Source: an uncultured Fluviicola sp. (GTDB taxonomy: Bacteria; Bacteroidota; Bacteroidia; Flavobacteriales_D; Crocinitomicaceae). From it: 64,000 bases of DNA. Shown in pieces: positions 3,269-16,462 of the stretch. The notes beneath the pieces were generated by a model that had not been told where the DNA came from, made no database searches, and saw only the letters and a program-made list of their open reading frames with translations. Numbering within the stretch: position 1 is the first letter of the stretch; every line of letters begins with the position of its first letter. Location of the stretch: contig CBFGNV010000012.1 of the NCBI GenBank assembly GCA_965650275.1, positions 3,111 to 67,110 on the forward strand, in the 5' to 3' direction. A program made the position numbers and the translations under genes.

Positions 3269-5224
3269 TTATTGCGGTCGACGATCTAACTTTTTCCAGT
3301 TGCGCAGAATCAGCTGTAGGTCAAGTAGTAAATGATATTCACGGGCATAGAGCAAGTTCATTTTAATGATCATTGCATCTTCAGTCACCAAATCTTCATT
3401 ATACGGAACCAGAATTCCCTTTTTTAAACGCGGGAGATCCAACTCGTTCATCACTGTTTTTCCATAACTCACGCATGTGATCTTTGAAAAGAGAATGCCA
3501 ATTGCATTCCGAAATAATTGCTTCTTATGTTTGAAGAACCAACATAGAATAGGGAAGGTTACGAGTAGAATTATTCCTGTAAGAACATCTAAAAAACGTT
3601 TGTGACGCTGCTTGATTGGTTCGCTCAAAGCGTTTATATCAAGAATATACAGATCACCAGCTGTTTCAATGGAATTTGAACCTATCAGAAAAGAACTGTC
3701 GGGCTGGGCAATTTTGAAATCTACATTGGGCTTGTCAACGGCAATGATCCAATGGATAATGTCTTTTGCTGTGGTATCTTTTGCACAGAAAATCACTTCG
3801 TCTATCTCATGAATTTGAACTACCTGCCCCAATTTATCCATAGTCAAATCTTCGTTCTGAACATTTTCATTGGGTGATACATGGATAATCTTCTCAATTT
3901 TTGGCTGAGTTATTTTCACCAGTTCCGAGACACGTTTGAATTCTTCTTCTGACCCGATAACGGCAAAGTTGCTGTTTTTTCTACCGTTCAGAATAAAGCG
4001 TTTTCCAATGGTAAAGTGCAGGAAAATTCGAGACAAAAGGAAATAGACAATTGCCCATGCTGCTCCTGTGAAAATGAATAAACGGGAGAATTGCCAATCC
4101 TTTGGAAGCAAGGCGTAAACCATTAAAATCAAGGCGGTTCCAATGGCAACTCCCATCACTGAGCGTTTTAATTTCGCTGGAAAATCATAAACTCCCTGAA
4201 ATAATGACGATAAAAACCAAATGGCGGTATATCCGAAAATTAAGTAGTGGGTGACTTTTTCAGGAAAGAAAATCTCGGCTCGTTTCCAGTAAGTGGTTAA
4301 AGCCAGCATTCCGAAATAGATGTAAGTAAAATCTATTACCGGAAGTGTGATCTTCTTGAAAAAACGATTCAATAATGCCAGTCCTGCTCTGAAATAAATA
4401 GCTGCATTAATGCATAGTGAGAAGAGCTTTGCGTTGTTCTGACTAAAGTGTTTCTGTGCAAAAATGACCATTGCACGGTAGAATACGAAAACGTAGTTTA
4501 CACTGCTTTTCTTGGTGCTTTCACCTTTGTAATGGATGATCCTTGTCTCTGGGAAATAAACGTTTTTGTAGCCGCCAAGAATAATTCGGTATGAAAGATC
4601 AATGTCTTCACCGTACATGAAAAACGTTTCGTCCAACAACCCAACTTTATCCAAAGCCTCTTTACGCATTAGCATAAAAGCACCACTCAGGATCTCAATT
4701 TCGTTGGTTTCGAATTCGCTTAGATTTCCCATGTGGTAACGGGCAAATCGTTTCGATTTCGGGAAAATCTTCGACAATCCGAAAATCTTGTAAAAAGCAA
4801 CAGCCGGAGTAGGTAAACCGCGTTTAGATTCTGGTAAGAAAACTCCTTTACCGTCAACCATTCTAACTCCCAATCCACCAACTTCAGGATGTTCTTCCAT
4901 GTAATCGACTACTTTTTTCAAAGTGTCTTCTTCAATTACCGTATCTGGATTGAGTAACAACTGATATTTGCAGTTGGATTGCAGCATTGCCTGATTATTG
5001 GCTTTAGAGAATCCGACGTTGTCTTTATTGGCGATGAGTTTTACCCATGGGAATTTCTCTTTCACCATTTGTACTGATCCGTCAACACTTTGATTATCGA
5101 CTACCCAAACCTCTGCAGGTTCCAAAGTCATGGCTCTGGCAACGGAATTAATGCACTGCTCTAAAAAGAACACCACATTGTAATTCACGATTATCACTGC
5201 AATTTTTGGTTCCTGAGTATTCAA
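3269..5224 (-). CDS. GT2 glycosyltransferase fused to a TM region and a CoA-binding/sugar-transferase-like C-terminus
   Basis: IIVNYN, VVDNQSVDGS, LLLNPDT, FFMYGEDIDLS motifs; several TM helices; C-terminal KRFLDVL...LDLQLILR resembling a Bac_transf remnant. Confidence 0.85.
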   Translation of the reverse strand: MNTQEPKIAVIIVNYNVVFFLEQCINSVARAMTLEPAEVWVVDNQSVDGSVQMVKEKFPWVKLIANKDNVGFSKANNQAMLQSNCKYQLLLNPDTVIEEDTLKKVVDYMEEHPEVGGLGVRMVDGKGVFLPESKRGLPTPAVAFYKIFGLSKIFPKSKRFARYHMGNLSEFETNEIEILSGAFMLMRKEALDKVGLLDETFFMYGEDIDLSYRIILGGYKNVYFPETRIIHYKGESTKKSSVNYVFVFYRAMVIFAQKHFSQNNAKLFSLCINAAIYFRAGLALLNRFFKKITLPVIDFTYIYFGMLALTTYWKRAEIFFPEKVTHYLIFGYTAIWFLSSLFQGVYDFPAKLKRSVMGVAIGTALILMVYALLPKDWQFSRLFIFTGAAWAIVYFLLSRIFLHFTIGKRFILNGRKNSNFAVIGSEEEFKRVSELVKITQPKIEKIIHVSPNENVQNEDLTMDKLGQVVQIHEIDEVIFCAKDTTAKDIIHWIIAVDKPNVDFKIAQPDSSFLIGSNSIETAGDLYILDINALSEPIKQRHKRFLDVLTGIILLVTFPILCWFFKHKKQLFRNAIGILFSKITCVSYGKTVMNELDLPRLKKGILVPYNEDLVTEDAMIIKMNLLYAREYHLLLDLQLILRNWKKLDRRPQ

Positions 5225-5340
5225 GGTTTGTTTTCTACAATTGGTTTAACGCAAACTTTCGAGGTTTAGCATAATCCGAGTAAAAACTCTTTGGGATTAT
5301 GTAATTTCGTAGTTGCATGCAAGTTTAAGCATTTACAGCG

Positions 5341-5913
5341 GTGAAAATAATACTCATAGATAATTTCGATTCGTTTTCTTACAATCTTGTTCATTATTTT
5401 GAGCAGTTGGATGCTGAAATTACGGTGGTGAATAATCTGGAAATAGATCCGGAAATGCTTCTGGATTATGACGCTTGTGTGTTGTCGCCCGGACCAGGTT
5501 TACCAAAAGAAGCTGGTAGATTAATGGAGGTGGTTGAGTTTGCTGTCAAGAATAAAATTCGAATGCTGGGTGTTTGTTTGGGAATGCAGGCTATTGCTGA
5601 ATATTTCGGAGATGAATTATACAATCAGAAGGTAGTGAAACATGGAACTACAGCTCTTCTTCGGACCCAAAATAATTCGATTATTTATCAAAATTTACCT
5701 GAACAATTTAAGGTTGGACTTTATCATTCCTGGGCAGTGCAATTGAAAACGGATTCTCCTTTGATTCCAACAGCTGTTTCTAGTGATGGAGTATTGATGT
5801 CTTTGGAGCATAAAGAACTGCCTGTTTACGCTGTTCAGTATCATCCGGAGAGTATTTTGTCGGAGCACGGGTTGGGGGTTCTTGCTAATTTTTTGAAACA
5901 CATAGTCACATAG
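5341..5913 (+). CDS. Glutamine amidotransferase, anthranilate/aminodeoxychorismate synthase component II (TrpG/PabA)
   Basis: IDNFDSFSYNL, LSPGPGLP, GVCLGMQ, YHS and QYHPES motifs. Confidence 0.92.
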   Translation: MKIILIDNFDSFSYNLVHYFEQLDAEITVVNNLEIDPEMLLDYDACVLSPGPGLPKEAGRLMEVVEFAVKNKIRMLGVCLGMQAIAEYFGDELYNQKVVKHGTTALLRTQNNSIIYQNLPEQFKVGLYHSWAVQLKTDSPLIPTAVSSDGVLMSLEHKELPVYAVQYHPESILSEHGLGVLANFLKHIVT

Positions 5914-5970
5914 AAAAAAAATAGACACAGTAGCTTAATATGCTATATTTCAAACCTAAAAAGAGATGTC

Positions 5971-6180
5971 ATGAAAAAGGAATACTGGGACGTAAATGAC
6001 GAGCAGGTTATTGAGAAAACGGGAAAGAAAATTGAGGAATGGATTGCTATCCTTGACGAATTTAAAGCGGCTGAACAGAAATCAAATGATGTTGTTGCGC
6101 ATCTTCAAAATACGTATAATGTCCCTCGTTACTGGGCAAGAACATTGACGACTCTTTACCTGAAACAAAACGAAAAATAA
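5971..6180 (+). CDS. Small DUF4287-like protein
   Basis: 69 aa; EKTGKKIEEW...VAHL...YWARTL pattern. Confidence 0.6.
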   Translation: MKKEYWDVNDEQVIEKTGKKIEEWIAILDEFKAAEQKSNDVVAHLQNTYNVPRYWARTLTTLYLKQNEK

Positions 6181-6239
6181 ATCTCCCGCGAAGAGCGCAA
6201 AGTACGCAAAAACAATTTAATTGAATTGAATATCTCAAC

Positions 6240-6722
6240 ATGATTGACGACCTACAAATTATTTATCCGGGAATGCATCCTTTGCCAGGGGCAATGCTTA
6301 TGATGGTCCTCGCCTTTTTCGGACTCTTAGCAATAATAAGCTTGGTTATTACTTTTAGGTTATTCAAAACAGCAAAACGAAAATACACTCCCTATCTATT
6401 TCTTGTTCCATCCATTTTAATCATTGTATTTATTGTATACAACTGGATTGGTTACAATTCCATTTTCAACAAATATGAAAGACAACTGATAGGCACTTTC
6501 TACTGTTCTGAATCCAAAGAAAAAATTTGGATAAATTCAGATAAAACATGGATTTTAAAAGATCAAAATCAAATTAAACAATGTTCAGGAACCTGGGAAT
6601 TCATTGCTTCGGAAGACTGGTTTTATTGGAATATTAGCGAAAACAATATTATTCGTATTCAAACCGGGGATCCAAAGATCTTACGCTTTCGTTCTGGATT
6701 GGAATTTATTAGAAAAGACTAA
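6240..6722 (+). CDS. Hypothetical membrane protein (2 TM + soluble domain)
   Basis: 160 aa ORF with two hydrophobic segments. Confidence 0.6.
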   Translation: MIDDLQIIYPGMHPLPGAMLMMVLAFFGLLAIISLVITFRLFKTAKRKYTPYLFLVPSILIIVFIVYNWIGYNSIFNKYERQLIGTFYCSESKEKIWINSDKTWILKDQNQIKQCSGTWEFIASEDWFYWNISENNIIRIQTGDPKILRFRSGLEFIRKD

Positions 6723-6830
6723 TTTGAGTAAAATTAAAGTTGACGCAGCATCCGTAAAACTATGATCACTATGTTCCTACTATGTGACTATGTGTTTAAA
6801 CTATCCCGAAGTGTCGGGAAAAGTTGTTTC

Positions 6831-7337
6831 CTATGCGTTTTTCAATACCTTTTCGTAAGCTCTCCTCGCTGAACCCCTAAAGAACACTTCTCCACAATAT
6901 GTATATTCTAATCTGTCGAGAATCTTAAGCATGGGAACATTGTCATAATTCGTATCGACCTTAATACTAAAAACATTATTCTCAATCGCTACATCTTCAA
7001 TCATTCGGAAAAGCTCAGTTGCAATTCCTTTTCCTTTGACAGCGTTAGATGTTGCTACACGATGAATAACTACGTAATCACCATTGGTCAACCATGTACC
7101 CTGAATATCTGTGTAAGCTGGTTCAACTTCGAAAATAATTGCTGCGTAAGCAATGATGGTTTCATTCTCGATCAATACATAACCAAAACCATGGTTGATG
7201 TCGTTTTCGACAGTGTCGGGATTTGGATAACCGTCTTGCCATTGCTGACTCCCATCTTGTCGTCGTTGTTCGATAGCTTGTTGAAGTATTTCCCAAATTG
7301 CCGGGATTTCGGATAGATTTGCTTTGCGGAGGATCAT
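6831..7337 (-). CDS. GNAT family N-acetyltransferase
   Basis: IHRVATSNAVKGKGIA acetyl-CoA motif and KVDTNYDNVPM. Confidence 0.9.
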   Translation of the reverse strand: MILRKANLSEIPAIWEILQQAIEQRRQDGSQQWQDGYPNPDTVENDINHGFGYVLIENETIIAYAAIIFEVEPAYTDIQGTWLTNGDYVVIHRVATSNAVKGKGIATELFRMIEDVAIENNVFSIKVDTNYDNVPMLKILDRLEYTYCGEVFFRGSARRAYEKVLKNA

Positions 7338-7541
7338 TGGTATTGAAAATTCAAACGAAGATAAAGCGATTTTTTTGAACCGCTAAGAAAGAAGAACGCA
7401 AAGACTATGTCTCTTTGCTCACTTTGTTTCTTTGCGTTTTATTATTTCGAATTTATGAATTAAATAAGTGTTAACCCGATTTGCTAAGATGAACCATTCG
7501 TTGAGATTTCTGTAATTTCCAGTGATTAATGAAACTGCTCC

Positions 7542-8846
7542 ATGAAGTACTTGACTTTTCTTTGTTTTCTCATCCCAGTTTTATGTTTGTCGCAGAATGC
7601 CGCAGCTATTAAATTGATTAAGGGAAGACAACATGTAGCGAACCATTCACAGAAGGAATATCAATTTGTGATTGAAGGTAACAAATCGCACGGGCATGTT
7701 CCACTCGTTGTAAACGATATTTTTTCCTGGGACACGCTTTCAAAAAAGCAACTCGGAAAAGAGTATATTCTTTCCTTTAAGAACGAATCGAAGTTCCCGC
7801 TTTATGTATTGGATATTTCTGCGCAAAGCCAAAATTTTGATGTGAAAAACATCGGGAAAGCGATGATTCTACCCGATTCAATGGTTCGATTAAGTTTTCG
7901 ATGTGATACAGCAGGATTCGGAGATTTTTACGGAAATATTGCGATTTACTACAACAGAAATAATGCAAATGAATACTACGATATGTGGATGTATGGTTTT
8001 CAACCGTATAAGAATAAAGGTGTTACTCAATTGAACACAGCACTTCGCAGATTAGAGACAAAGAAGCTTATCGTACTCGACGATAAATTGACATCAACGA
8101 ATAAATGCAAAATCAAGGTTATAGAAAAGGACACGTCTTATTATCCAAAGCTGATCCAGGAGAATGGTGAATGGGGTTGTGTTTTGAACCTGAGAAACGA
8201 TTCGTATACTGCCGTTGAAATCATAGATGAGACTGGAAAAGTAAAGGGAAAAGGCTTTTTGGAAAATGATTTTATGAAGCACAATATCTTTCTGCACCTC
8301 CGTCCTGAACCTCCTAAAATACACACTTATAATCGTGGACCAGTAGCTTATAAAGCACTTGATTCTCTCTATTTTGTAAGTTGGACTGGTGATTTTAAGC
8401 AAGACGAAGTGATTACCTATTTGAAGTCGAAAGGAATAGATGCCAGAAATAGTTCATTAGTTAGTTTCGTAATGAAGGATAAAGCTAAAGTGCTTGCCTT
8501 ACAGAAAGAATTGACGTTGTCGAAGTACAAGATTGCTATTCTTCCGGCGATATCTTATTCAGAAGTGAACGAATTTGGTTGGGGCGGAGCATGTCGGTTT
8601 TATACTAATAACTTTGAAATTTCCTTCTTCAACCATGTTTCCAACGAGCGAATCGAACAGATCTTTAAACAACATGGAATTACGAATTATTATGTGCGGG
8701 AAGAAACCAACCAGGAAAAAAAATACACTTTCATACTTCCAGTAATTGTTGACCTGAAATACATGACTCTGCTTGATAAGCTGTGGCAGCTATCAGAAGT
8801 AACATCTATCGAACAGGAAGATCGTGGGATTGATGGCATTGATTAA
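7542..8846 (+). CDS. Secreted hypothetical protein with a probable N-terminal Ig-like (DUF1573-like) domain
   Basis: Signal peptide; FKNESKFPLYV...ILPDS...FRCDT Ig-like pattern. Confidence 0.6.
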   Translation: MKYLTFLCFLIPVLCLSQNAAAIKLIKGRQHVANHSQKEYQFVIEGNKSHGHVPLVVNDIFSWDTLSKKQLGKEYILSFKNESKFPLYVLDISAQSQNFDVKNIGKAMILPDSMVRLSFRCDTAGFGDFYGNIAIYYNRNNANEYYDMWMYGFQPYKNKGVTQLNTALRRLETKKLIVLDDKLTSTNKCKIKVIEKDTSYYPKLIQENGEWGCVLNLRNDSYTAVEIIDETGKVKGKGFLENDFMKHNIFLHLRPEPPKIHTYNRGPVAYKALDSLYFVSWTGDFKQDEVITYLKSKGIDARNSSLVSFVMKDKAKVLALQKELTLSKYKIAILPAISYSEVNEFGWGGACRFYTNNFEISFFNHVSNERIEQIFKQHGITNYYVREETNQEKKYTFILPVIVDLKYMTLLDKLWQLSEVTSIEQEDRGIDGID

Positions 8847-8858
8847 CCTTCTCAAAAG

Positions 8859-10274
8859 CTATTCCTGATAATAAGCATCCCAAAGTTTGTTTCGAAACTT
8901 GTTTGTTGGATCAACGCGCTTTTTGAGTTCGAAGAAAGCATTGGATTCCGGATAGGCATTTGCAAATTGTTCAGTTGTAGCGTGAATTTGATAGGGCAGG
9001 TAGTAACTTCCATTGCATGAGATCGACGCATCAATTAACAATTGTGTCCACGCTTTTACCTTGTCTTTATCCTTTTGTTTTGTTCCTTGTTTGTAATAGA
9101 TCACAAAGGCAAAAACGTCTTCTCTCGCCCAGGCCAAAAGTGATCCCGGATCTTTCTTCGCATGTCGAATGGAAATATTGATCGCATTCACCTTATTTTC
9201 TCTCAGAATTGACCTTAAAAGTGGATAGAACTTATCGAACTCCTGAACCGGAACAAAATATTCCTGCAAAACATAGGTTGAACGCTTTCTTGATTTCGGT
9301 TCCAGTTCAAGCACGGTGTAACTGGCTTCGTAATTTCGCCATTCTACTGGATTTTTACTATAAACAATCGGGTCGAACAAATGCTGTCGAAGCCATTTCC
9401 CACCCGGATATTCCGAGATCAATTTAAAAGCAAAACGATTGAAGCCATAGGTTTTATCTTCCGGAACCAGTCGGTGTTCTACGGTCACCTCTTTATCGGT
9501 TTCACGAAAGGAAACTTCTCTTACTTTTTTATAGCGTTTTGGATAAATATCCGCATTGTGAAACACAACTGTAGAATCGTTTTGAACATGTTCCATGAAG
9601 TAATCTTTGTATTCCGAAATAGGAAGCTTTTTATCGGTTCGTTCCATTTTTACATTGTCGGAAAGCAGTAATGTAGCTTCTGTAATTACGCCTAATCCGC
9701 CGTAACCACCAATTGCACCAAAGAACAATTCGCTGTTTTTGGTTGGACTAGCGGTGATCAATTCTCCATTGGCAAGCACCAGTTTAATTTCCTGAACAGA
9801 AAGAATGATCGGACCTTCACCAATGTATCTGCCATGAACATTTACGCTCAAAGAACCGCCAACAGTGAAGTTTGCATAAGACTGCATAATCTTCACCGAA
9901 AGATTGTATGGATCAATAAATTCTTGAATTTTTCGCCAGGTGATGCCTGTTTGAACCGTAATGGTTTTTTCTTCAGCCGAAAAATGAACAATACTGTCAA
10001 AGCTCCGCATATCAATCTGAAGCGCTTGTTCGGTAGCGGTTTGACCGCCCATGCTGTATCGCCCGCCACCAATGGAAATTGGACCTTTGTGATTTTTCAC
10101 CGCGTTCACAATCTCACTGGTAGATTTTGGTGCAAGTATAGCGTTAACAACAATTGGATTCAGCTGCGTAATATCGTTGACAATCTTTGTCGTGTCCTGA
10201 CCATACAATGCACCATGTAATTGTGCAGTTGCAAGTAAACATAGGATGGAAAAACGATAAAACAGTTTAGGCAT
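8859..10274 (-). CDS. Secreted FAD-binding oxidoreductase (FAD_binding_4 / ALO-like)
   Basis: GGGRYSMGGQ, TVGGSLSVNVHG, GGYGGLGVI, VDPTNKFRN motifs. ATG 10274 preferred to the track's 10343 because a signal peptide follows it. Confidence 0.85.
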   Translation of the reverse strand: MPKLFYRFSILCLLATAQLHGALYGQDTTKIVNDITQLNPIVVNAILAPKSTSEIVNAVKNHKGPISIGGGRYSMGGQTATEQALQIDMRSFDSIVHFSAEEKTITVQTGITWRKIQEFIDPYNLSVKIMQSYANFTVGGSLSVNVHGRYIGEGPIILSVQEIKLVLANGELITASPTKNSELFFGAIGGYGGLGVITEATLLLSDNVKMERTDKKLPISEYKDYFMEHVQNDSTVVFHNADIYPKRYKKVREVSFRETDKEVTVEHRLVPEDKTYGFNRFAFKLISEYPGGKWLRQHLFDPIVYSKNPVEWRNYEASYTVLELEPKSRKRSTYVLQEYFVPVQEFDKFYPLLRSILRENKVNAINISIRHAKKDPGSLLAWAREDVFAFVIYYKQGTKQKDKDKVKAWTQLLIDASISCNGSYYLPYQIHATTEQFANAYPESNAFFELKKRVDPTNKFRNKLWDAYYQE

Positions 10275-10381
10275 GTTTATGTGTGGTAATGAAGAAGGGT
10301 AAAAGTAGGATAATTTTCTTTTTTCGAATTCAACACAAGTCACAAGAGGTTTTAAGGCTTGAAGATTTGGATTGAGTGTTT

Positions 10382-10888
10382 TTATTTGTTGCGATCTTTT
10401 AGCAGTTGATCAATCCGTTCTTTGTCGAACAAAAGTCGCTGTTTGAAAATTTCCAGCATAGCTAAATAATCTTCTTTTGAAAAATTCAATTCCTGAATTT
10501 GATCGAACCATTCTACCGTTGAACCCACTTTCTCCGCTTCCCATTCGCTGGTTTTGTCTGATCCAAGTTGCTTCCATTGAATGATATCGCCACAATTTCT
10601 AATTTCAGCTACAATCAATGTGCACGAAAAATCATTGTCGTCCGGACACATCAAAATCGGACAAACGGAAGTTTCATTCTCATCCGGTAATATTCGTTTC
10701 CAGACCACTTCCTTTTCATCGTTTCGATCCATCCAATACACGAGGGTTGGAATGAGTCCTTTGTAACTTTGCTCAGGATAGAGCTCATCCAACTTTTCGT
10801 CCAACCAATAACCGTCAATGTGATAGTTAATGAAATCCCAATAGTCTTCATAATCGCTTTTATCCAGTATTCCTTCTATTTTGTTCAT
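10382..10888 (-). CDS. Acidic hypothetical protein with a CPILMCPDDNDFSC motif
   Basis: 168 aa ORF packed in a same-strand run. Confidence 0.65.
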   Translation of the reverse strand: MNKIEGILDKSDYEDYWDFINYHIDGYWLDEKLDELYPEQSYKGLIPTLVYWMDRNDEKEVVWKRILPDENETSVCPILMCPDDNDFSCTLIVAEIRNCGDIIQWKQLGSDKTSEWEAEKVGSTVEWFDQIQELNFSKEDYLAMLEIFKQRLLFDKERIDQLLKDRNK

Positions 10889-10892
10889 GGTA

Positions 10893-11501
10893 TTACTTGT
10901 CTAGGTAGCTTGCGGGTCCGTGATATAGAATTCCATTGACAGTTTTGGTTTCTTTCTCAAATTGACTAGGATTTATTGTTCCATCAAACGATTCAGAATA
11001 AAAAAGACTTTTATCTTTTTTCATTTTCAATCTGAATTTGGTTTTCATTTTTCCGTTGTACTCTTTAATTGGAATCATCACATATTTTCCAGGTTCAAGA
11101 CTCAACGGTTCAAAATAGCTGTTCCCGCAACCGCTGTAAACCCAATATTCAATTGGTTGCCATTCTCCTTCAGCATTTTGTGCTTCCTGAATCATAATCA
11201 GGCTGCCGTCTTGACGGTTAGCATTGAATATTGAATCGGTTGTATTGATGAGGTATGCTGTAAAATAATCTTTAGGATTAGATTCCATCCAAACAAAGGA
11301 ATTCGTATCCAGATCTTTTACTTTTAGATTTTTATCAAAGTAAAAGTAAGTTTGATTTGGTCTAAGCTCAGAAAATGTAGAGTCGATATCCAAAGGTTCT
11401 GAACATTCATAAAATGCCCGTCTGTTTCCTTTATCGCTTTTGTTAAGAAAGCTGCAGAACAGAAGTAATACTAGGACAAAAAGGAATGGTTTTCTATTCA
11501 T
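10893..11501 (-). CDS. Hypothetical exported protein or lipoprotein
   Basis: Hydrophobic N-terminus with Cys; ATG 11501 (the track uses TTG 11531). Confidence 0.65.
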   Translation of the reverse strand: MNRKPFLFVLVLLLFCSFLNKSDKGNRRAFYECSEPLDIDSTFSELRPNQTYFYFDKNLKVKDLDTNSFVWMESNPKDYFTAYLINTTDSIFNANRQDGSLIMIQEAQNAEGEWQPIEYWVYSGCGNSYFEPLSLEPGKYVMIPIKEYNGKMKTKFRLKMKKDKSLFYSESFDGTINPSQFEKETKTVNGILYHGPASYLDK

Positions 11502-11543
11502 AAGTGATATTTTATTACCTAATACATTCAATTACTCAAAAGT

Positions 11544-12617
11544 TCATTTTGACGTTTTCCAAACTTCGAATTTCTTCCCATTGAATTTGTAAACACCATT
11601 TTCATGCGTTCCCAGCCAGATATTTCCAGAATTATCCGAATAAATGTAAAACGTATGGATGTCTTTTCCATTGTTCTGAACAGGATATCGAATAATCTTC
11701 TTTCCATTGATGCAATAAACACCGTCGTTATATGTGGCAATCCAAAGATTGTGCTTCTTGTCTTTTGAAATGGATAAATATTCGTTCAGATTATCATTTC
11801 TTTTTTTGTCCAGATTTCCGACACTCTTTTCTTTTGTGTAGAATCCTTTTGAAGATGATTTCTGGTTATAAACGTTGTACTTATAAGCAGAATTGAACCA
11901 GAAGTATCCGTTTTTATCTTCGATTATTGAGCGTACTCCATTCGAAGGTCCATCATGAAGTTCTGTGACATCTTCTTCAGCAATCCATTGAAAGTTCTCG
12001 CCGTTGAATCTGCAAGCTCCTAATGTTGCAGTTCCGAACCAAACATTTCCTTTGCTGTCGTTGTAAATGGTATAAACGGCGTAAGGATTTGGTCGATCTG
12101 GATATTTTGCCCTGAGCTCTTCTCCAACCGGAACAGGTGGAAGTTTCAGGCTGTGTAGTTTTTCTCCGTCGTAACGAAAAATCAAACCTTCCGATTGCCA
12201 GTTTTTGAACCAGAGATCGTCGGGATTCAATTTCCATTCGCTTTCGGTCGAATTGGCTACCAACAATGAGGTAAACTGCTTTCCATCGAATCGACATACA
12301 CCTGAACTTGTACTTAAATAGAGATTACCTGATTTGTCTTCTTTGATCTCTTCAACTCTGTTGCTTGGTAATCCATGTTTTGTGGTGTAATGAAGAATCG
12401 TTTTTCCATTGTAACTGTACAAACCCTCTTCCCAGCTGCCAAACCAGTAGCTGTTCTTTTTGTCTTGATAAACAACCATGATGTTTTTGCTGAGTTCAGT
12501 TACTGTGTCACCGCGTACGATGAAAAGATCTTTGCCTTTGCCCGGATTTGTAGATCCTGAGCAACCGCTTGCAACGAAAAAAGGTAAACAGAAGAAAAGA
12601 AGATTTCGGAGTTTCAT
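11544..12617 (-). CDS. Lipoprotein with two-component-regulator beta-propeller (Reg_prop) repeats
   Basis: Lipobox ASG-C; repeats of D..GN(L/I)W.GT (EDKSGNLYLST, NDSKGNVWFGT, EDKNGYFWFNS, SDNSGNIWLGT). Confidence 0.85.
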   Translation of the reverse strand: MKLRNLLFFCLPFFVASGCSGSTNPGKGKDLFIVRGDTVTELSKNIMVVYQDKKNSYWFGSWEEGLYSYNGKTILHYTTKHGLPSNRVEEIKEDKSGNLYLSTSSGVCRFDGKQFTSLLVANSTESEWKLNPDDLWFKNWQSEGLIFRYDGEKLHSLKLPPVPVGEELRAKYPDRPNPYAVYTIYNDSKGNVWFGTATLGACRFNGENFQWIAEEDVTELHDGPSNGVRSIIEDKNGYFWFNSAYKYNVYNQKSSSKGFYTKEKSVGNLDKKRNDNLNEYLSISKDKKHNLWIATYNDGVYCINGKKIIRYPVQNNGKDIHTFYIYSDNSGNIWLGTHENGVYKFNGKKFEVWKTSK

Positions 12618-12647
12618 AAAAGCAATATACAATGTTTCTTAATGAAG

Positions 12648-13181
12648 CTAGAAATTTAAAGTTTTCTGAACATTTTTCACTTTGCTTGTGATGAGTTTTG
12701 ATAGGTGGTCGAATTCTAATTCACTCATAGAGCTTCTTGGTAAAAGAACATTTGTATCAGAGAATAGCCAAATTAATCGCTCATTTATCACGGCTTTTTC
12801 AATAATCGTCCAATCCTGTTTCAGGGTGTCGTTGTCATGAATGTGAACGAATGAAGTTTCGTTATAACTTAAACGTAAATCTTTTGTGTTTTCAGCTTTC
12901 GTCAAGAATTCTTCTACACTTTTTCTCCATTGAATTACGTTACGTGCGGCTTTCCAAAATTCATAAACAACTGCGAATAAAAAAATAATCGCAAATAGTA
13001 AAAGTCCAAGTTCCTGAATATACCAGGAGTAAAAAGCTAGAGGAGGGACCAGAATCACTCCAATGATTAGAAAAGTGGATTGTTTTTTTGTGGATTGGCC
13101 AAAGAAAAGTTTGTGTTGATTATCACGAAAGTAAATTGATCGCAAATCGTCAATATCAACGCTCATTTTTATTTCCGTCAT
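12648..13181 (-). CDS. YcxB-like membrane protein
   Basis: Two TM helices, then the W..I...........LLPRSS-type C-terminal domain. Confidence 0.6.
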   Translation of the reverse strand: MTEIKMSVDIDDLRSIYFRDNQHKLFFGQSTKKQSTFLIIGVILVPPLAFYSWYIQELGLLLFAIIFLFAVVYEFWKAARNVIQWRKSVEEFLTKAENTKDLRLSYNETSFVHIHDNDTLKQDWTIIEKAVINERLIWLFSDTNVLLPRSSMSELEFDHLSKLITSKVKNVQKTLNF

Positions 13182-13224
13182 TTTATTTTTCTATTTACTT
13201 GTGTCGATACTTTTACAGTGAACT

Positions 13225-13584
13225 TTATTGCTTCAAATAAACAATCTTTCGCTTTTTAAACAAAGAAATCCTTTCTTTTCTGCAGATAACAATGACTCCA
13301 TCGTCCGTTTGATTCAGACTCAATTCATTGATGCTTTTTAGTTCGCTATTGAATTTGACAGGAGTTAGTTTCACAGAGTTTTTAGACACAGAATATTCTC
13401 CAATGCACAAAACAGTATCACCCCAAACTGCATATTGGTAGGTGTGATCACCATCGAAAATAAATGTTTCGTAGCAAGAAATTCCGCAAGTGTAACGGAA
13501 TTCTCCTTTGAGCAAGGGTTTGGTTTGAGCGAAAGTTGAAAAAGCTAAAAACTGCAACGAAAGGAAGATGAATTGTCTTTTCAT
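13225..13584 (-). CDS. Secreted hypothetical protein
   Basis: Signal peptide from ATG 13584 (MKRQFIFLSLQFLAFSTFAQ), 2 nt after the stop of the upstream nuclease gene. Confidence 0.6.
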   Translation of the reverse strand: MKRQFIFLSLQFLAFSTFAQTKPLLKGEFRYTCGISCYETFIFDGDHTYQYAVWGDTVLCIGEYSVSKNSVKLTPVKFNSELKSINELSLNQTDDGVIVICRKERISLFKKRKIVYLKQ

Positions 13585-13586
13585 GA

Positions 13587-14663
13587 TTATTCTCTCCTTA
13601 TCTTTCTTAGCCATGAATCCCATGATTCAACATCTAGACGAATTGATTCTGTTTCACGGTCGTGCCTTTTTTTACTTTCCTTCAAATCATTTTCGGTTCT
13701 TCCTCCAATGACTACGGTATACACATTAATGTCTTTATTGGAGTCAACTTCCAGGTGATCAGATGGTCCAATAAACGCATTGTAAATCTTAGAACCACTT
13801 TCAACAGCTTCTCTTATTTTATGAATCTTCTTTCTAAACTCATTACGATTCTCAGTAATATAGCGCATTCTTTGCCGCAACTGATGCATAGCACTTTCTA
13901 TTTTACTGTTGAATTTATCGTAATGTCCTTTATTGAAAATATTAAACTCAGCTCCTTTTACTTCCACGAGGATAACATCCATTCTAGATATTCCGGAAAG
14001 CACTACAAAATCAACATATCCATCACCTACAGGAAATTCAGAAAAACAAATGTAATCTTCTGTTGGGTGAGCATATACTTCCGCGAAAATGGATAAATCC
14101 TTTTTTAATAGATTCTGAATATCTTGCTCACTTGCTCCATTATCAATTAATTCTTGAATTGATAGTTTTGAAATTTTACCATCTTCTATTTCGAATTTCT
14201 TTTTAAGCCGTTTAATGTCATGAGAATTGGGTAAATTTAAAAGCGGGTTAATCTCCGTTCTGAGTTTTCCAATATCATTGACTAATCTAAGGTCACTCAT
14301 TGTTGGAGTTTCGAATTCCTTCATACTACAATCCACCAGTTCTGAGACTTTAGAGCGCTTGAGCGATTCCCATATTGGTCTGTTTTCACCGTCAAATGTT
14401 ACAAGCTCGAAAACTTCTCGTGAAACACCGCCCATTTCATAGTGCTCTATGAAAATCGTATTAGATGGTACTTCGTAGTTTTTTATTAGTGATTCAACAA
14501 TTGATTCAATAGAGTTTGTAATTGATGCAGAAGGATTTTCGTCTATTTCAGTGATTAGAGCCACAATTTTACCTGCTTTGTTATTGAATATTCGTAGACG
14601 ACATAAACCATCGTTTCTGGAGCCCATACAGGGATATCTGTATATCTTATCGCTAATTTTCAT
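13587..14663 (-). CDS. Shedu (SduA/DUF4263)-like PD-(D/E)xK anti-phage nuclease with an unassigned N-terminal domain
   Basis: C-terminal SEQDIQNLL...SEFPVG...VDFVVL...LVEVKG...SAMHQ...VVIGGR...ESWDSWL follows the DUF4263 pattern. The gene reads visibly more AT-rich than the flanking core genes. Confidence 0.75.
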   Translation of the reverse strand: MKISDKIYRYPCMGSRNDGLCRLRIFNNKAGKIVALITEIDENPSASITNSIESIVESLIKNYEVPSNTIFIEHYEMGGVSREVFELVTFDGENRPIWESLKRSKVSELVDCSMKEFETPTMSDLRLVNDIGKLRTEINPLLNLPNSHDIKRLKKKFEIEDGKISKLSIQELIDNGASEQDIQNLLKKDLSIFAEVYAHPTEDYICFSEFPVGDGYVDFVVLSGISRMDVILVEVKGAEFNIFNKGHYDKFNSKIESAMHQLRQRMRYITENRNEFRKKIHKIREAVESGSKIYNAFIGPSDHLEVDSNKDINVYTVVIGGRTENDLKESKKRHDRETESIRLDVESWDSWLRKIRRE

Positions 14664-14693
14664 TTAGATTTCTTCGTGAATAAGTGATTATTC

Positions 14694-14701
14694 CAAATAT
14701 A
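14694..14701 (-). promoter_or_regulatory. -7 element TATATTTG upstream of the Shedu-like gene
   Basis: Exact TAnnTTTG match about 30 nt upstream of ATG 14663. Confidence 0.55.
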
Positions 14702-14768
14702 AAAAAATGTATGAATTAAATCACTTCATGAAATTTGTGTATTCGTGGTTGATTGGAATAGTGTTAAC

Positions 14769-14801
14769 AAAAAAAAATCCCAGCTCAATTAAGAACCGGG
14801 A
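14769..14801 (-). terminator. Weak intrinsic terminator after the 63-aa peptide gene
   Basis: Imperfect TCCCGGTTC/GAGCTGGGA stem followed by T9 on the minus strand. Confidence 0.4.
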
Positions 14802-14824
14802 CTTCAATATCTTTAGAAAGTGAA

Positions 14825-15016
14825 TTAAGCAGCTTTCTTAGAGCAGCAAGAACCTCCTTTGCTTTCGCAACCTTTCTTAGTAGATTTTTTCTTCTTTTTC
14901 TTATCGTCGTCTTTCTTAACAACTACAGTATGATTTCCTGAAGCTGCAGCGTAAACGTTCGCAGACATAGATCCTACGAAAAGTGCTAGAGTAGCTGCTA
15001 CAAATACCTTTTTCAT
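14825..15016 (-). CDS. Small secreted Lys/Cys-rich peptide
   Basis: Signal peptide ending in VYA, then KKDDDKKKKKKSTKKGCESKGGSCCSKKAA. Codon choices resemble those of the ribosomal protein genes. Confidence 0.7.
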   Translation of the reverse strand: MKKVFVAATLALFVGSMSANVYAAASGNHTVVVKKDDDKKKKKKSTKKGCESKGGSCCSKKAA

Positions 15017-15063
15017 AATATTTTTAATTAATGTGTGTAATTACAGGGACTAATATACATTCT

Positions 15064-15131
15064 TTATTGAAGTACTCCAAGCTTCGTTAACTTAGCTTTA
15101 ACATCTTCACCAATTTTAACATCTAATGGTA
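15064..15131 (-). pseudogene. Orphan diverged copy of the psd 3' end
   Basis: Encodes PLDVKIGEDVKAKLTKLGVLQ* versus psd ...IDVKIGDDVQAKLTKLGVLK*. 53/60 nt identical between 15064-15123 and 15797-15856 (counted by eye). Confidence 0.85.
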
Positions 15132-15680
15132 TTACTTACATACCATATTGTAAAGCCTGATCATTTCCATGAACTCGTCTTCTTTCTTAGAATATTCACC
15201 TTTGAATCGTTTTACAAATTCGGGACATTCTTGTAAATATGGCTTAATGTTATCTTCGATTGTTTTGCTATTGATATCATATAAGATTCCTTCTGGTGTT
15301 CGCATAACAAATCTGTTTTTACTTGCTCCATCTGTTCCTGAATCTTGGTAGACAATAATCTTTCCATCTACTGCTCGCCATTCAAAACGTGAATAACCAT
15401 CGGGTTTATTCAGATTCTGTGGTATTTTATCAGACGTAATTCCATGATAATAGACTGTGGTTATGTTCTGAACATTTTCTTTTCCTTTAATACTGACCTC
15501 TTCTCCTTCAATATCTTTATAGGTGACTTTTTTTAAATCCCCTTGTGCACCAACTATGCACTCCAGTTCACTACAAAATGTAGTATCACTGTTGTTTACA
15601 ATAAAATAGTCTTGAGCTGAAACTTTCATCCCAGTAGCGATGAAGATGGATAGAATAATCTGGTTTTTAAGTGTTTTCAT
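15132..15680 (-). CDS. Secreted hypothetical protein
   Basis: 182 aa with a signal peptide (KVSA-QD); its stop directly abuts the psd-tail copy. Confidence 0.7.
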   Translation of the reverse strand: MKTLKNQIILSIFIATGMKVSAQDYFIVNNSDTTFCSELECIVGAQGDLKKVTYKDIEGEEVSIKGKENVQNITTVYYHGITSDKIPQNLNKPDGYSRFEWRAVDGKIIVYQDSGTDGASKNRFVMRTPEGILYDINSKTIEDNIKPYLQECPEFVKRFKGEYSKKEDEFMEMIRLYNMVCK

Positions 15681-15722
15681 TTAGATTAAATTATGAAGTG
15701 GTATTAAGAATTAAATTTAAAT

Positions 15723-15758
15723 AAAAATCGCGATCTATCAATATAGACCGCGATTCTT
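15723..15758 (-). terminator. Intrinsic terminator after psd
   Basis: AATCGCGGTCTAT/ATAGATCGCGATT stem followed by a T-run on the minus strand. Confidence 0.7.
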
Positions 15759-15796
15759 TATCTTTTTCTGAAACTTTTTAAGCAGAAATAATTTCT

Positions 15797-16462
15797 TTAT
15801 TTCAACACTCCAAGCTTCGTTAACTTAGCTTGAACATCGTCACCAATCTTAACATCAATCTGTGTTCCTAATGGTAAGAAAATATCAACACGAGATCCGA
15901 ACTTAATGAAACCGAATTCTCCTCCGGTTACTGCTTGTTCTCCTTCTTTTGCATAATAACAAATGCGACGTGCTACGGCTCCTGCAATCTGGCGGAACAA
16001 TACTTCTTGTCCGGTTGCATGTTCTACAACTACTGTACTTCTTTCGTTGTCTGTTGAACTTTTCGGATGCCATGCCACCAGAAATAATCCTTTGTGATAC
16101 TTCACGTATTTCACTTTTCCACTGGTAGGGTAGTAGTTGGCATGCACATTTAACGGCGACATGAAAATAGAAACCTGAATTCTTCTATCCTTGAAATATT
16201 CAGTTTCTTCTACTTCTTCAATAACCACCACTTTTCCGTCAGCCGGACAAAGCAAATCATTTGGTTCGAATGTAAATGTTCTCTTCGGGATACGGAAGAA
16301 TTGAACCACTAAATAGAGCATTACCAAACAGCCAAGGCTCAACAACCAGAACAACCAAGCCCAACCGGTCATTTGTAATAAATACCAATTTCCAACTTCA
16401 ATTGCTCCCAAAACCAATAATGCAATCAGAATTGTAGCTGTTCCTTCTCTGTGTAATGTCAT
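15797..16462 (-). CDS. psd: Phosphatidylserine decarboxylase proenzyme
   Basis: CPADGKVV, SIFMSPLNVHAN, RQIAGAVARRI, and FGSRVD self-cleavage motif. Confidence 0.93.
   Translation of the reverse strand: MTLHREGTATILIALLVLGAIEVGNWYLLQMTGWAWLFWLLSLGCLVMLYLVVQFFRIPKRTFTFEPNDLLCPADGKVVVIEEVEETEYFKDRRIQVSIFMSPLNVHANYYPTSGKVKYVKYHKGLFLVAWHPKSSTDNERSTVVVEHATGQEVLFRQIAGAVARRICYYAKEGEQAVTGGEFGFIKFGSRVDIFLPLGTQIDVKIGDDVQAKLTKLGVLK

Follow-up and report, generated by a model that had tools for sequence, protein, structure and literature searches.

The 3′ end of the phosphatidylserine decarboxylase gene (psd) occurs twice at one locus of a Fluviicola genome, once as the end of the intact gene and once, untranslated, on the far side of a single inserted gene. 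This arrangement is best explained, and we think probably so, by an ancient insertion that duplicated the tail of psd, followed by a division of coding and regulatory functions between the two copies.

The psd locus, its empty site and its other carriers

The genome under study (G000, 4.26 Mb) is a draft of 139 contigs, and its assignment to Fluviicola agrees with the source names of the close psd homologues. Positions given below are those of the window, the whole 64,000-nt stretch that was analyzed. All features of the locus lie on the minus strand, in the order psd, hairpin terminator, 182-aa gene, orphan psd tail and 63-aa gene. The host gene psd (16462..15797; an ORF of 221 aa, with PF02666 on close homologues) has the C-terminus ...DVKIGDDVQAKLTKLGVLK* and is 77-91% identical in amino acid sequence to a single-copy gene in 24 genomes of the same genus. 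Its codons 202-221, together with the stop and 4 nt, form the active, translated copy of the repeat (15793..15859), as defined by BLAST and by alignment of the tails. The left end of the insert carries an intrinsic-terminator-like hairpin followed by a U-run (15758..15723; folding energy −23.7 kcal/mol, z = −4.6), and next to it lies the cargo gene, an ORF of 182 aa with an N-terminal signal peptide (15680..15132). Nine nucleotides past the cargo stop begins the orphan psd tail, 20 untranslated codons reading DVKIGEDVKAKLTKLGVLQ* (15123..15064; repeat copy 15060..15127), whose pseudo-stop TAA occupies 15066..15064. A 47-nt spacer separates the orphan tail from the conserved 63-aa gene (15016..14825), the native downstream neighbor of psd throughout the genus, which encodes a Lys-rich product with a signal peptide and the pattern CxxxxxxxCC and is followed by a predicted terminator-like hairpin (14774..14805). 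A search of Rfam gave no match above threshold between positions 14500 and 16600.

The two 60-nt tails are identical at 53 of 60 nt. The 7 differing positions fall in the codon pairs (active/orphan) AAG/AAA, GAC/GAA, CAA/AAA, GTG/GTA, TTG/CTT (two changes) and AAA/CAA. The gene order, the orphan tail with its own stop and the 53/60 identity had all been given in a preliminary description of this DNA, and the ORFs and the tail alignment show it to have been accurate in every detail. By BLAST the repeat extends to 68 nt (88% identity; 15060-15127 and 15793-15859, spacing 733) and includes the AGAA that follows the stop. Exactly two copies exist in the 4.26-Mb genome, the second matching the first at E = 8e-18, which excludes chance similarity. 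The repeat is thus neither a multi-copy genomic repeat nor an att site of the tRNA type, and no tRNA is involved.

Relatives of G000 lack the insert. In 24 of 24 loci of the same genus, the small gene (MKKxF...CCxKKAA) starts about 35-50 nt past the end of psd; the psd tail is single-copy in the other genomes of a 36-genome genus set, and the cargo gene was not found in the 35 other Fluviicola species genomes. The psd/63-aa-gene junction is also uninterrupted in three closer, metagenomic relatives, L036 (P0003), L037 (P0004) and L038 (P0005), whose Psd proteins are 92-95% identical to that of G000. In L036 and L038, psd ends with exactly the peptide of the orphan, followed by a homologous spacer; the orphan is 59/60 identical to the native psd tails of both, and the small gene of G000 is 97.9% identical to that of L036. 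The preliminary description had predicted that relatives free of the insert would end psd with the orphan-type tail GEDVKAKLTKLGVLQ* and carry the 63-aa gene next, and P0003/L036 and P0005/L038 do so. The psd gene of G009 likewise ends in GVLQ*, but that of L037 ends in GVLK*, so the split between the two endings does not cleanly track the insert. Because insert-free relatives share both the tail and the spacer, the native junction is the orphan plus spacer, and the 733 bp represent inserted DNA. Direct repeats of more than 30 bp bound it on both sides, and both correspond to one and the same copy at the uninterrupted site of the relatives.

Two further deep lineages carry an insertion at the same junction. 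In L035 (P0002, from JGI metagenome 3300003964), psd shares its GDDVQAKLTKLGVLK* tail with G000 and is followed by a homologous hairpin (6697-6730), and the place of the cargo is taken by about 600 nt of non-coding filler with 2.3 copies of a 199-nt unit; the orphan tail DVKIGEDVKAKLTTLGVMK*, the native spacer and the small gene follow. No remnant of the cargo was found in L035, and its filler has no match in G000. In L067 (Logan SRR30452385), a hairpin-free stretch of 56 nt separates the psd tail GDDVKAKLTKLGVLK* from a cargo homologue (64% amino acid identity); 18 nt, the orphan, the spacer and the small gene come next. G000 thus has its cargo in common with L067 and its hairpin in common with L035, and the starting points of the three orphans, at (GA)TGTTAAAAT, agree to within 2 nt. 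Given this sharing and these coincident starts, a single ancestral insertion is the simplest reading, and the three insertions are related by descent. Candidate 5′ extensions of the orphan, longer and decayed (TACCATTAG in G000, a further stretch in L035), aligned no better than shuffled sequence and were rejected.

The insertion is old. Among the three lineages, psd and cdsA have diverged to a dS of 1.0-1.5 and the cargo to about 2, although values of about 1 to 2 are saturated and weak for dating. The preliminary description had envisaged acquisition by this genome; with psd and cdsA at dS of about 1, the event instead predates the split of at least three lineages. In gene trees of psd and of the small gene the bootstraps stay below 65, so that a single gain with losses and a horizontal spread of the whole cassette both fit. 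Similarly, the insert-free L036, L037 and L038 may never have had the insert or may have lost it, and the trees accommodate both histories. A pattern scan of metagenomes returned only 5 matches to the consensus tail, all of them single-copy, and no match to the active tail.

Constraint on the psd tail and the proposed roles of its two copies

If the end of psd encoded only protein, synonymous codons there would be free to vary. They are not. Across 27 undisrupted Fluviicola psd genes, synonymous-codon entropy falls to the lowest level of the whole gene around codons 205-219 (0.45, with 206-215 as the lowest window; mean over the gene, 1.18), and the tail codons GTT, AAA, GAT, GCT, AAG and CTT are near-invariant. 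Since synonymous diversity reaches its minimum there, constraint on the end of psd acts on the DNA and not solely on the protein.

The constrained segment contains the motif TTG-N20/21-TAnnTT[TA][GA], with the TTG placed in the psd codons CTT-GG and the second box 8-13 nt past the stop. Of 27 undisrupted lineages 25 have it, as do all three orphans, but none of the three active copies does. At the G000 orphan, a −33-like TTG (15080..15078) is separated by a 20-nt spacer from a −7-like TATATTAG (15057..15050), and an imperfect, operator-like palindrome, AAGCTAAGTTAACGAAGCTT (15098..15079), lies just upstream of the promoter-like motif. Promoters of the Bacteroidetes type consist of a −33 TTG and a −7 TAnnTTTG, and by its match to this consensus the motif in the tail is probably such a promoter. 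Taking motif and conservation together, we infer that the psd tail doubles as a candidate promoter and operator of the small gene, with the putative element of the 63-aa gene spanning 15050..15098 in G000.

The active copies have changed at positions that scarcely vary in the rest of the genus. In G000, the active copy has AAG at codon 207, where the genus invariably uses the synonymous AAA, and changes AAA to CAA at codon 213, replacing K with Q. The active copy of L035 bears four synonymous changes plus CAA at otherwise frozen positions, and that of L067 bears two changes at such positions. The orphans, meanwhile, are stable: those of G000 and L067 are identical over 48 nt, between lineages in which dS of the neighboring genes is about 1.1. 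The two copies therefore appear, from these sequence comparisons, to have split the coding and regulatory roles. The preliminary description had regarded the orphan as a scar; its conservation at the nucleotide level and its promoter-like motif for the next gene suggest instead that it is most likely functional regulatory DNA, kept as the putative promoter of its neighbor. The small gene itself has a very low dS among lineages (0.10-0.25), which could reflect recent recombination sweeps that dragged the orphan along, but variable patches of the spacer differ between lineages, and this counts against sweeps.

These observations suggest the following history. In the ancestral state, the last ~60 nt of psd would have served also as the control region of the 63-aa secreted peptide gene, with a −33 TTG and operator-like palindrome inside psd and a −7 box just past its stop. 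A segment made up of spacer, with or without a hairpin, and the cargo gene would have entered the psd/small-gene junction in a forerunner of at least three extant lineages, and the junction region, at least 66 nt, would have been duplicated, so that psd would have retained its full C-terminus and the small gene its promoter. Only an insertion that duplicates the dual-use segment would leave both genes working. The upstream copy, which is translated, would then have drifted at positions that other members of the genus keep fixed, and the downstream orphan, which is not, would have been held constant as regulatory DNA, with all sequence 5′ of it decaying. The interior of the insert would have turned over, the cargo being kept in G000 and L067 and the 199-nt tandem repeat standing in its place in L035. 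Finally, recombination or gene conversion between lineages would have shuffled the last three codons.

Source of the translated tail and competing explanations

The preliminary description held that the two tails had evolved in different lineages. The mosaic of tail ends fits some exchange between lineages, and to that extent agrees with this idea, but a foreign origin of the translated tail is possible rather than proven. The orphan of G000 ends as psd does in L036 and L038 (GTACTTCAA; GTA-CTT-CAA), and the active tail ends (GTGTTGAAA; GTG-TTG-AAA) as in L035 and close to L037. In L035, by comparison, the orphan and spacer match L037, the spacers being identical at 47 of 47 nt. Such a mosaic requires some recombination or gene conversion between lineages. 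It is compatible with a foreign donor and equally compatible with duplication in situ, relaxed constraint and later homologous exchange of the orphan/small-gene segment.

According to the first of these possibilities, a fragment from another Fluviicola lineage, consisting of a variant psd tail, the terminator and the cargo, recombined into psd, so that the translated tail is the donor's and the orphan is the recipient's displaced tail; the route would have been homology-facilitated illegitimate recombination or a Campbell-type single crossover of a circle. Several features point this way. The orphan and its spacer take the form that is native in L036 and L038; a psd with the active tail type, GDDVQAKLTKLGVLK*, is found only in lineages that bear the insert, and of the 120 closest Psd proteins, P0002 is the only one with the full G000 active tail. 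Between the active tails of G000 and L035 there are 5 differences, against 7 (G000) and 10 (L035) between each active tail and its own orphan, GAC and TTG-AAA-TAA are native in the G016 clade, and the sequence after the active copy's stop resembles a degraded native spacer. We nevertheless consider a foreign donor unlikely. The arrangement is common to three lineages at dS of about 1, and no transfer into G000 itself is needed. The differences of the active copies fall at sites that would have been freed once the promoter role was lost, and relaxed synonymous constraint after duplication in situ can explain them with no foreign donor. Moreover, a crossover within the repeat should give chimeric copies, but both orphans are native-type throughout, and no lineage with psd, hairpin and cargo and without the orphan was found.

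Other duplicated tails in the same genome also weigh against a donor. The scan for them that the preliminary description had recommended uncovered younger single-gene inserts with duplicated gene tails on three contigs of G000: an ABC-F gene tail (C57; repeat of 135 nt, 97.8%) with an inserted hairpin and a gene of 1459 aa, a glyoxalase tail (C27; 59 nt, 96.6%) with a gene of 299 aa, and the tail of a 665-aa gene (C74; 79 nt, 93.7%) with an OmpA-like gene of 568 aa. On a fourth contig (C44; 61 nt, 91.8%), the repeat comprises the 5′ end of an oppositely oriented 473-aa gene, and the inserted gene encodes an M48 peptidase of 691 aa. The tails on C57, C27 and C74 are single-copy in relatives where the gene was found. 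At polarizable sites on C57 and C27, the translated copy is ancestral and the derived changes are in the orphan, the pattern expected for a duplication in situ whose orphan has no second function.

A second alternative is that the locus is the remnant of a site-specific integrative element that entered at the psd 3′ end, supplied a surrogate tail and left attL/attR-like repeats, and has since lost its integrase and most of its content. The layout does resemble attL/attR at a gene 3′ end, down to a 24-nt identical core, and the content between the repeats differs between lineages. Repeat-bounded islets also adjoin tRNA-Arg and tRNA-Ser elsewhere in G000. This explanation is very unlikely, however. 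The insert, only 733 bp long, has a single ORF with no Pfam match, and no mobility genes were found between positions 3269 and 19835 (recombinase domains were sought in ORFs of at least 100 aa in 3269-13623, plus psd, cdsA and the ftsH side). As the preliminary description had stated, an integrase is absent from the insert, and no recombinase was found in ~12 kb on the low-coordinate side or 4 kb on the other. Inserts of the cargo family at other sites have no end sequences in common (G000, L039, L041, L042, L048 and L067 were compared, and only the same-locus pair shares an end motif); repeat lengths range from 59 to 188 nt across loci, and the identical core is accounted for by genus-wide conservation. 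A DNA transposon or IS element was likewise rejected: no terminal inverted repeats were found at the ends of the insert, and the duplication, 68 nt here and 59-188 nt elsewhere, is not of a short fixed length.

Last, chance similarity or an assembly artefact is hardly credible even for a 139-contig draft, because the repeat matches at the E value given above, the 7 sites that differ between the copies are at odds with a collapsed or duplicated read path, and independent assemblies from two other samples (L035 and L067) show the same architecture.

Route of insertion, the cargo family and relation to known systems

Returning to an ancient tail-duplicating insertion, its original mechanism has been erased by age, and no microhomology junction was established at the insert. 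The insertion step would have proceeded without a recombinase encoded by the element. The route that we prefer is integration of a circularized fragment, [tail + gene], by a single homologous crossover, such circles arising by recombination between repeats. To this we would assign somewhat less than half of the weight given to the insertion itself. Repair of widely staggered breaks, or template switching, might have produced the same duplication without a circle.

The cargo gives a further handle on the mechanism, because its family is strongly enriched for this footprint. A word-index protein search had made the cargo look like an ORFan, a view that was dropped when a full HMMER search recovered a family of 121 representative clusters of roughly 190-aa proteins in Bacteroidota. 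Members have a signal peptide, a β-rich N-terminal part, three C-terminal helices and three conserved Cys residues. The cargo has no match in Pfam or NCBIfam, no similarity to nucleases or methylases, and no fold match in the PDB despite an AF2 model with pLDDT 88. Its homologues are spread across Bacteroidota, and at 4 of 11 other genome loci they are enclosed by direct repeats (72-156 nt, 86-96% identity). For comparison, 14 of 2486 ORFs in G000 are flanked by repeats (0.56%; binomial p = 3e-7), this background being drawn from one genome. One more repeat-flanked homologue was present among three extra contigs (L092). In a Flavobacterium case, the host-gene tail with its adjoining intergenic region occurs three times around stacked inserts and once in each of 24 relatives. 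In four of six cases, no more than 28 nt separate the stop codon of the cargo from the downstream repeat. The cargo family is thus a frequent passenger of tail-duplicating insertions, and since its product is secreted, it is unlikely to be the driver of insertion.

A wider possibility, of which we are more doubtful than convinced, is a recombinase-free traffic of single-gene cassettes among Bacteroidota. A cassette flanked by tails would loop out, by recombination between them, as a [tail + gene] circle, and one homologous crossover between this circle and the corresponding tail of another genome would insert it there and regenerate the duplication. The 182-aa family would be a frequent passenger of this traffic, and tails that double as promoters would be the tolerated sites at which insertions become fixed.

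Insertion with long and variable target duplication has been described for restriction-modification genes, with no other mobile element and no established mechanism (Nobusato et al. 2000, Gene 259:99; Furuta, Abe & Kobayashi 2010, NAR, PMC2853133). Restriction-modification genes were proposed as the drivers of this class, which was seen mostly in recent, intraspecific comparisons (PMC2853133). The insertion in the psd tail belongs to this known, poorly understood kind. As in the described cases, a short insert (well under 20 kb) lies between direct repeats of more than 30 bp, of which the empty site has one copy; integrase and transposase genes are absent, overlap of the repeats with the 3′ end of a gene is frequent, and repeat lengths vary from locus to locus. 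It differs in that the cargo is a secreted protein in Bacteroidota rather than a restriction-modification unit, and in that the psd event is ancient, with a downstream copy that seems to have been kept by selection as a putative promoter. A rarely cited and mechanistically unsolved mode of gene gain is thereby extended beyond restriction-modification to ordinary accessory genes of Bacteroidota. For annotation, it follows that orphan gene tails beside accessory genes should not be dismissed as junk or assembly errors.

The locus also resembles the islands and phages that integrate at the 3′ ends of tRNA or protein genes, where attL and attR likewise leave the target intact through a second copy of its end and place the orphan end at the far side of the insert. 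Unlike elements that carry a surrogate 3′ end, the psd locus has no recombinase, no conserved ends, an insert of 733 bp and no fixed repeat length. In naturally transformable bacteria, homology-facilitated illegitimate recombination takes up foreign DNA that is anchored by one stretch of homology, with no functions of mobile elements. At the non-homologous end, recipient DNA is as a rule lost or replaced, and duplication of the whole anchor is not a regular outcome. The psd insertion shares with this process an anchor of homology to a housekeeping gene, but here the whole anchor was duplicated.

Finally, the fate of the two tails recalls subfunctionalization under the duplication-degeneration-complementation (DDC) model, in that an ancestor with two functions, a coding tail and a putative promoter of the neighboring gene, gave rise to copies that would each keep one. 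Unlike in that model, the unit is a 60-nt segment rather than a gene, and its duplication was a by-product of insertion. Because the orphan would take over a regulatory job that once overlapped the coding tail, the footprint of such an insertion can persist across speciation, and the psd locus offers a concrete, testable case of the subfunctionalization of a 60-nt dual-use sequence.

Conservation of the 63-aa gene and the adjoining variable region

The 63-aa gene (14825-15016, minus strand) encodes a signal peptide, a KKDDDKKKKKK stretch and three Cys residues. Its nucleotide sequence is 96-98% identical among the window and the lineages of relatives with (L035, L067) or without (L036, L037) an insert at the junction with psd, whereas psd and cdsA beside it are only 78-86% identical among the same lineages. 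dS is 0.10-0.25 for the 63-aa gene vs. 1.0-1.5 for these neighbours. This low dS reflects either very strong constraint on synonymous sites, such as might follow from extreme expression or from a function at the RNA level, or a recent recombination sweep of the segment.

Between the 63-aa gene and a conserved GATase gene (5341-5913) lies a variable region of low GC content (31-36%; 5913-14825). It contains a Shedu-type nuclease gene (SduA_C; 13587-14663), genes for a Reg_prop protein, a GNAT protein and an FAD-binding protein, and several ORFs without a family. Gene content here differs in relatives (e.g. a DUF433/DUF5615 pair in L067).

Other repeat-bracketed insertions in the genome

Four more single-gene insertions were found in the same Fluviicola genome, each between direct repeats of 59-135 nt that are 92-98% identical. 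For ORFs of 1459 aa (C57:11739-16462), 299 aa (C27:17865-19032) and 568 aa (OmpA-like; C74:1977-4061), each pair of repeats overlaps the adjacent gene at its 3′ end; for an M48 peptidase ORF of 691 aa (C44:18457-20857), the overlap is with the 5′ end of a gene on the opposite strand. Islets also occur beside tRNA genes: two are stacked beside tRNA-Arg (C22:35141-42382), delimited by repeats of 166 nt and 69 nt, and one beside tRNA-Ser (C48:24595-25357) has a 166-nt repeat.

The cargo position and the cargo family in other genomes

In L035, a non-coding unit of 199 nt, repeated 2.3 times in tandem, occupies the cargo position (6694-7110). The unit starts within the terminator hairpin, and nothing matching it occurs in the genome that contains the window. 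A Flavobacterium genome (L048; G052:C65:45314-50104) carries, in three copies, a segment made up of the tail of a core 255-aa gene and the intergenic region downstream of it. These copies bound two stacked inserts, one of which holds a cargo-family gene; 24 relatives carry a single copy of the segment. Another cargo-family member (L090:697-1281 and L091) overlaps the maf stop codon by 4 nt (ATGA) and lacks a flanking repeat. Thus, some cargo-family members are embedded in housekeeping operons.
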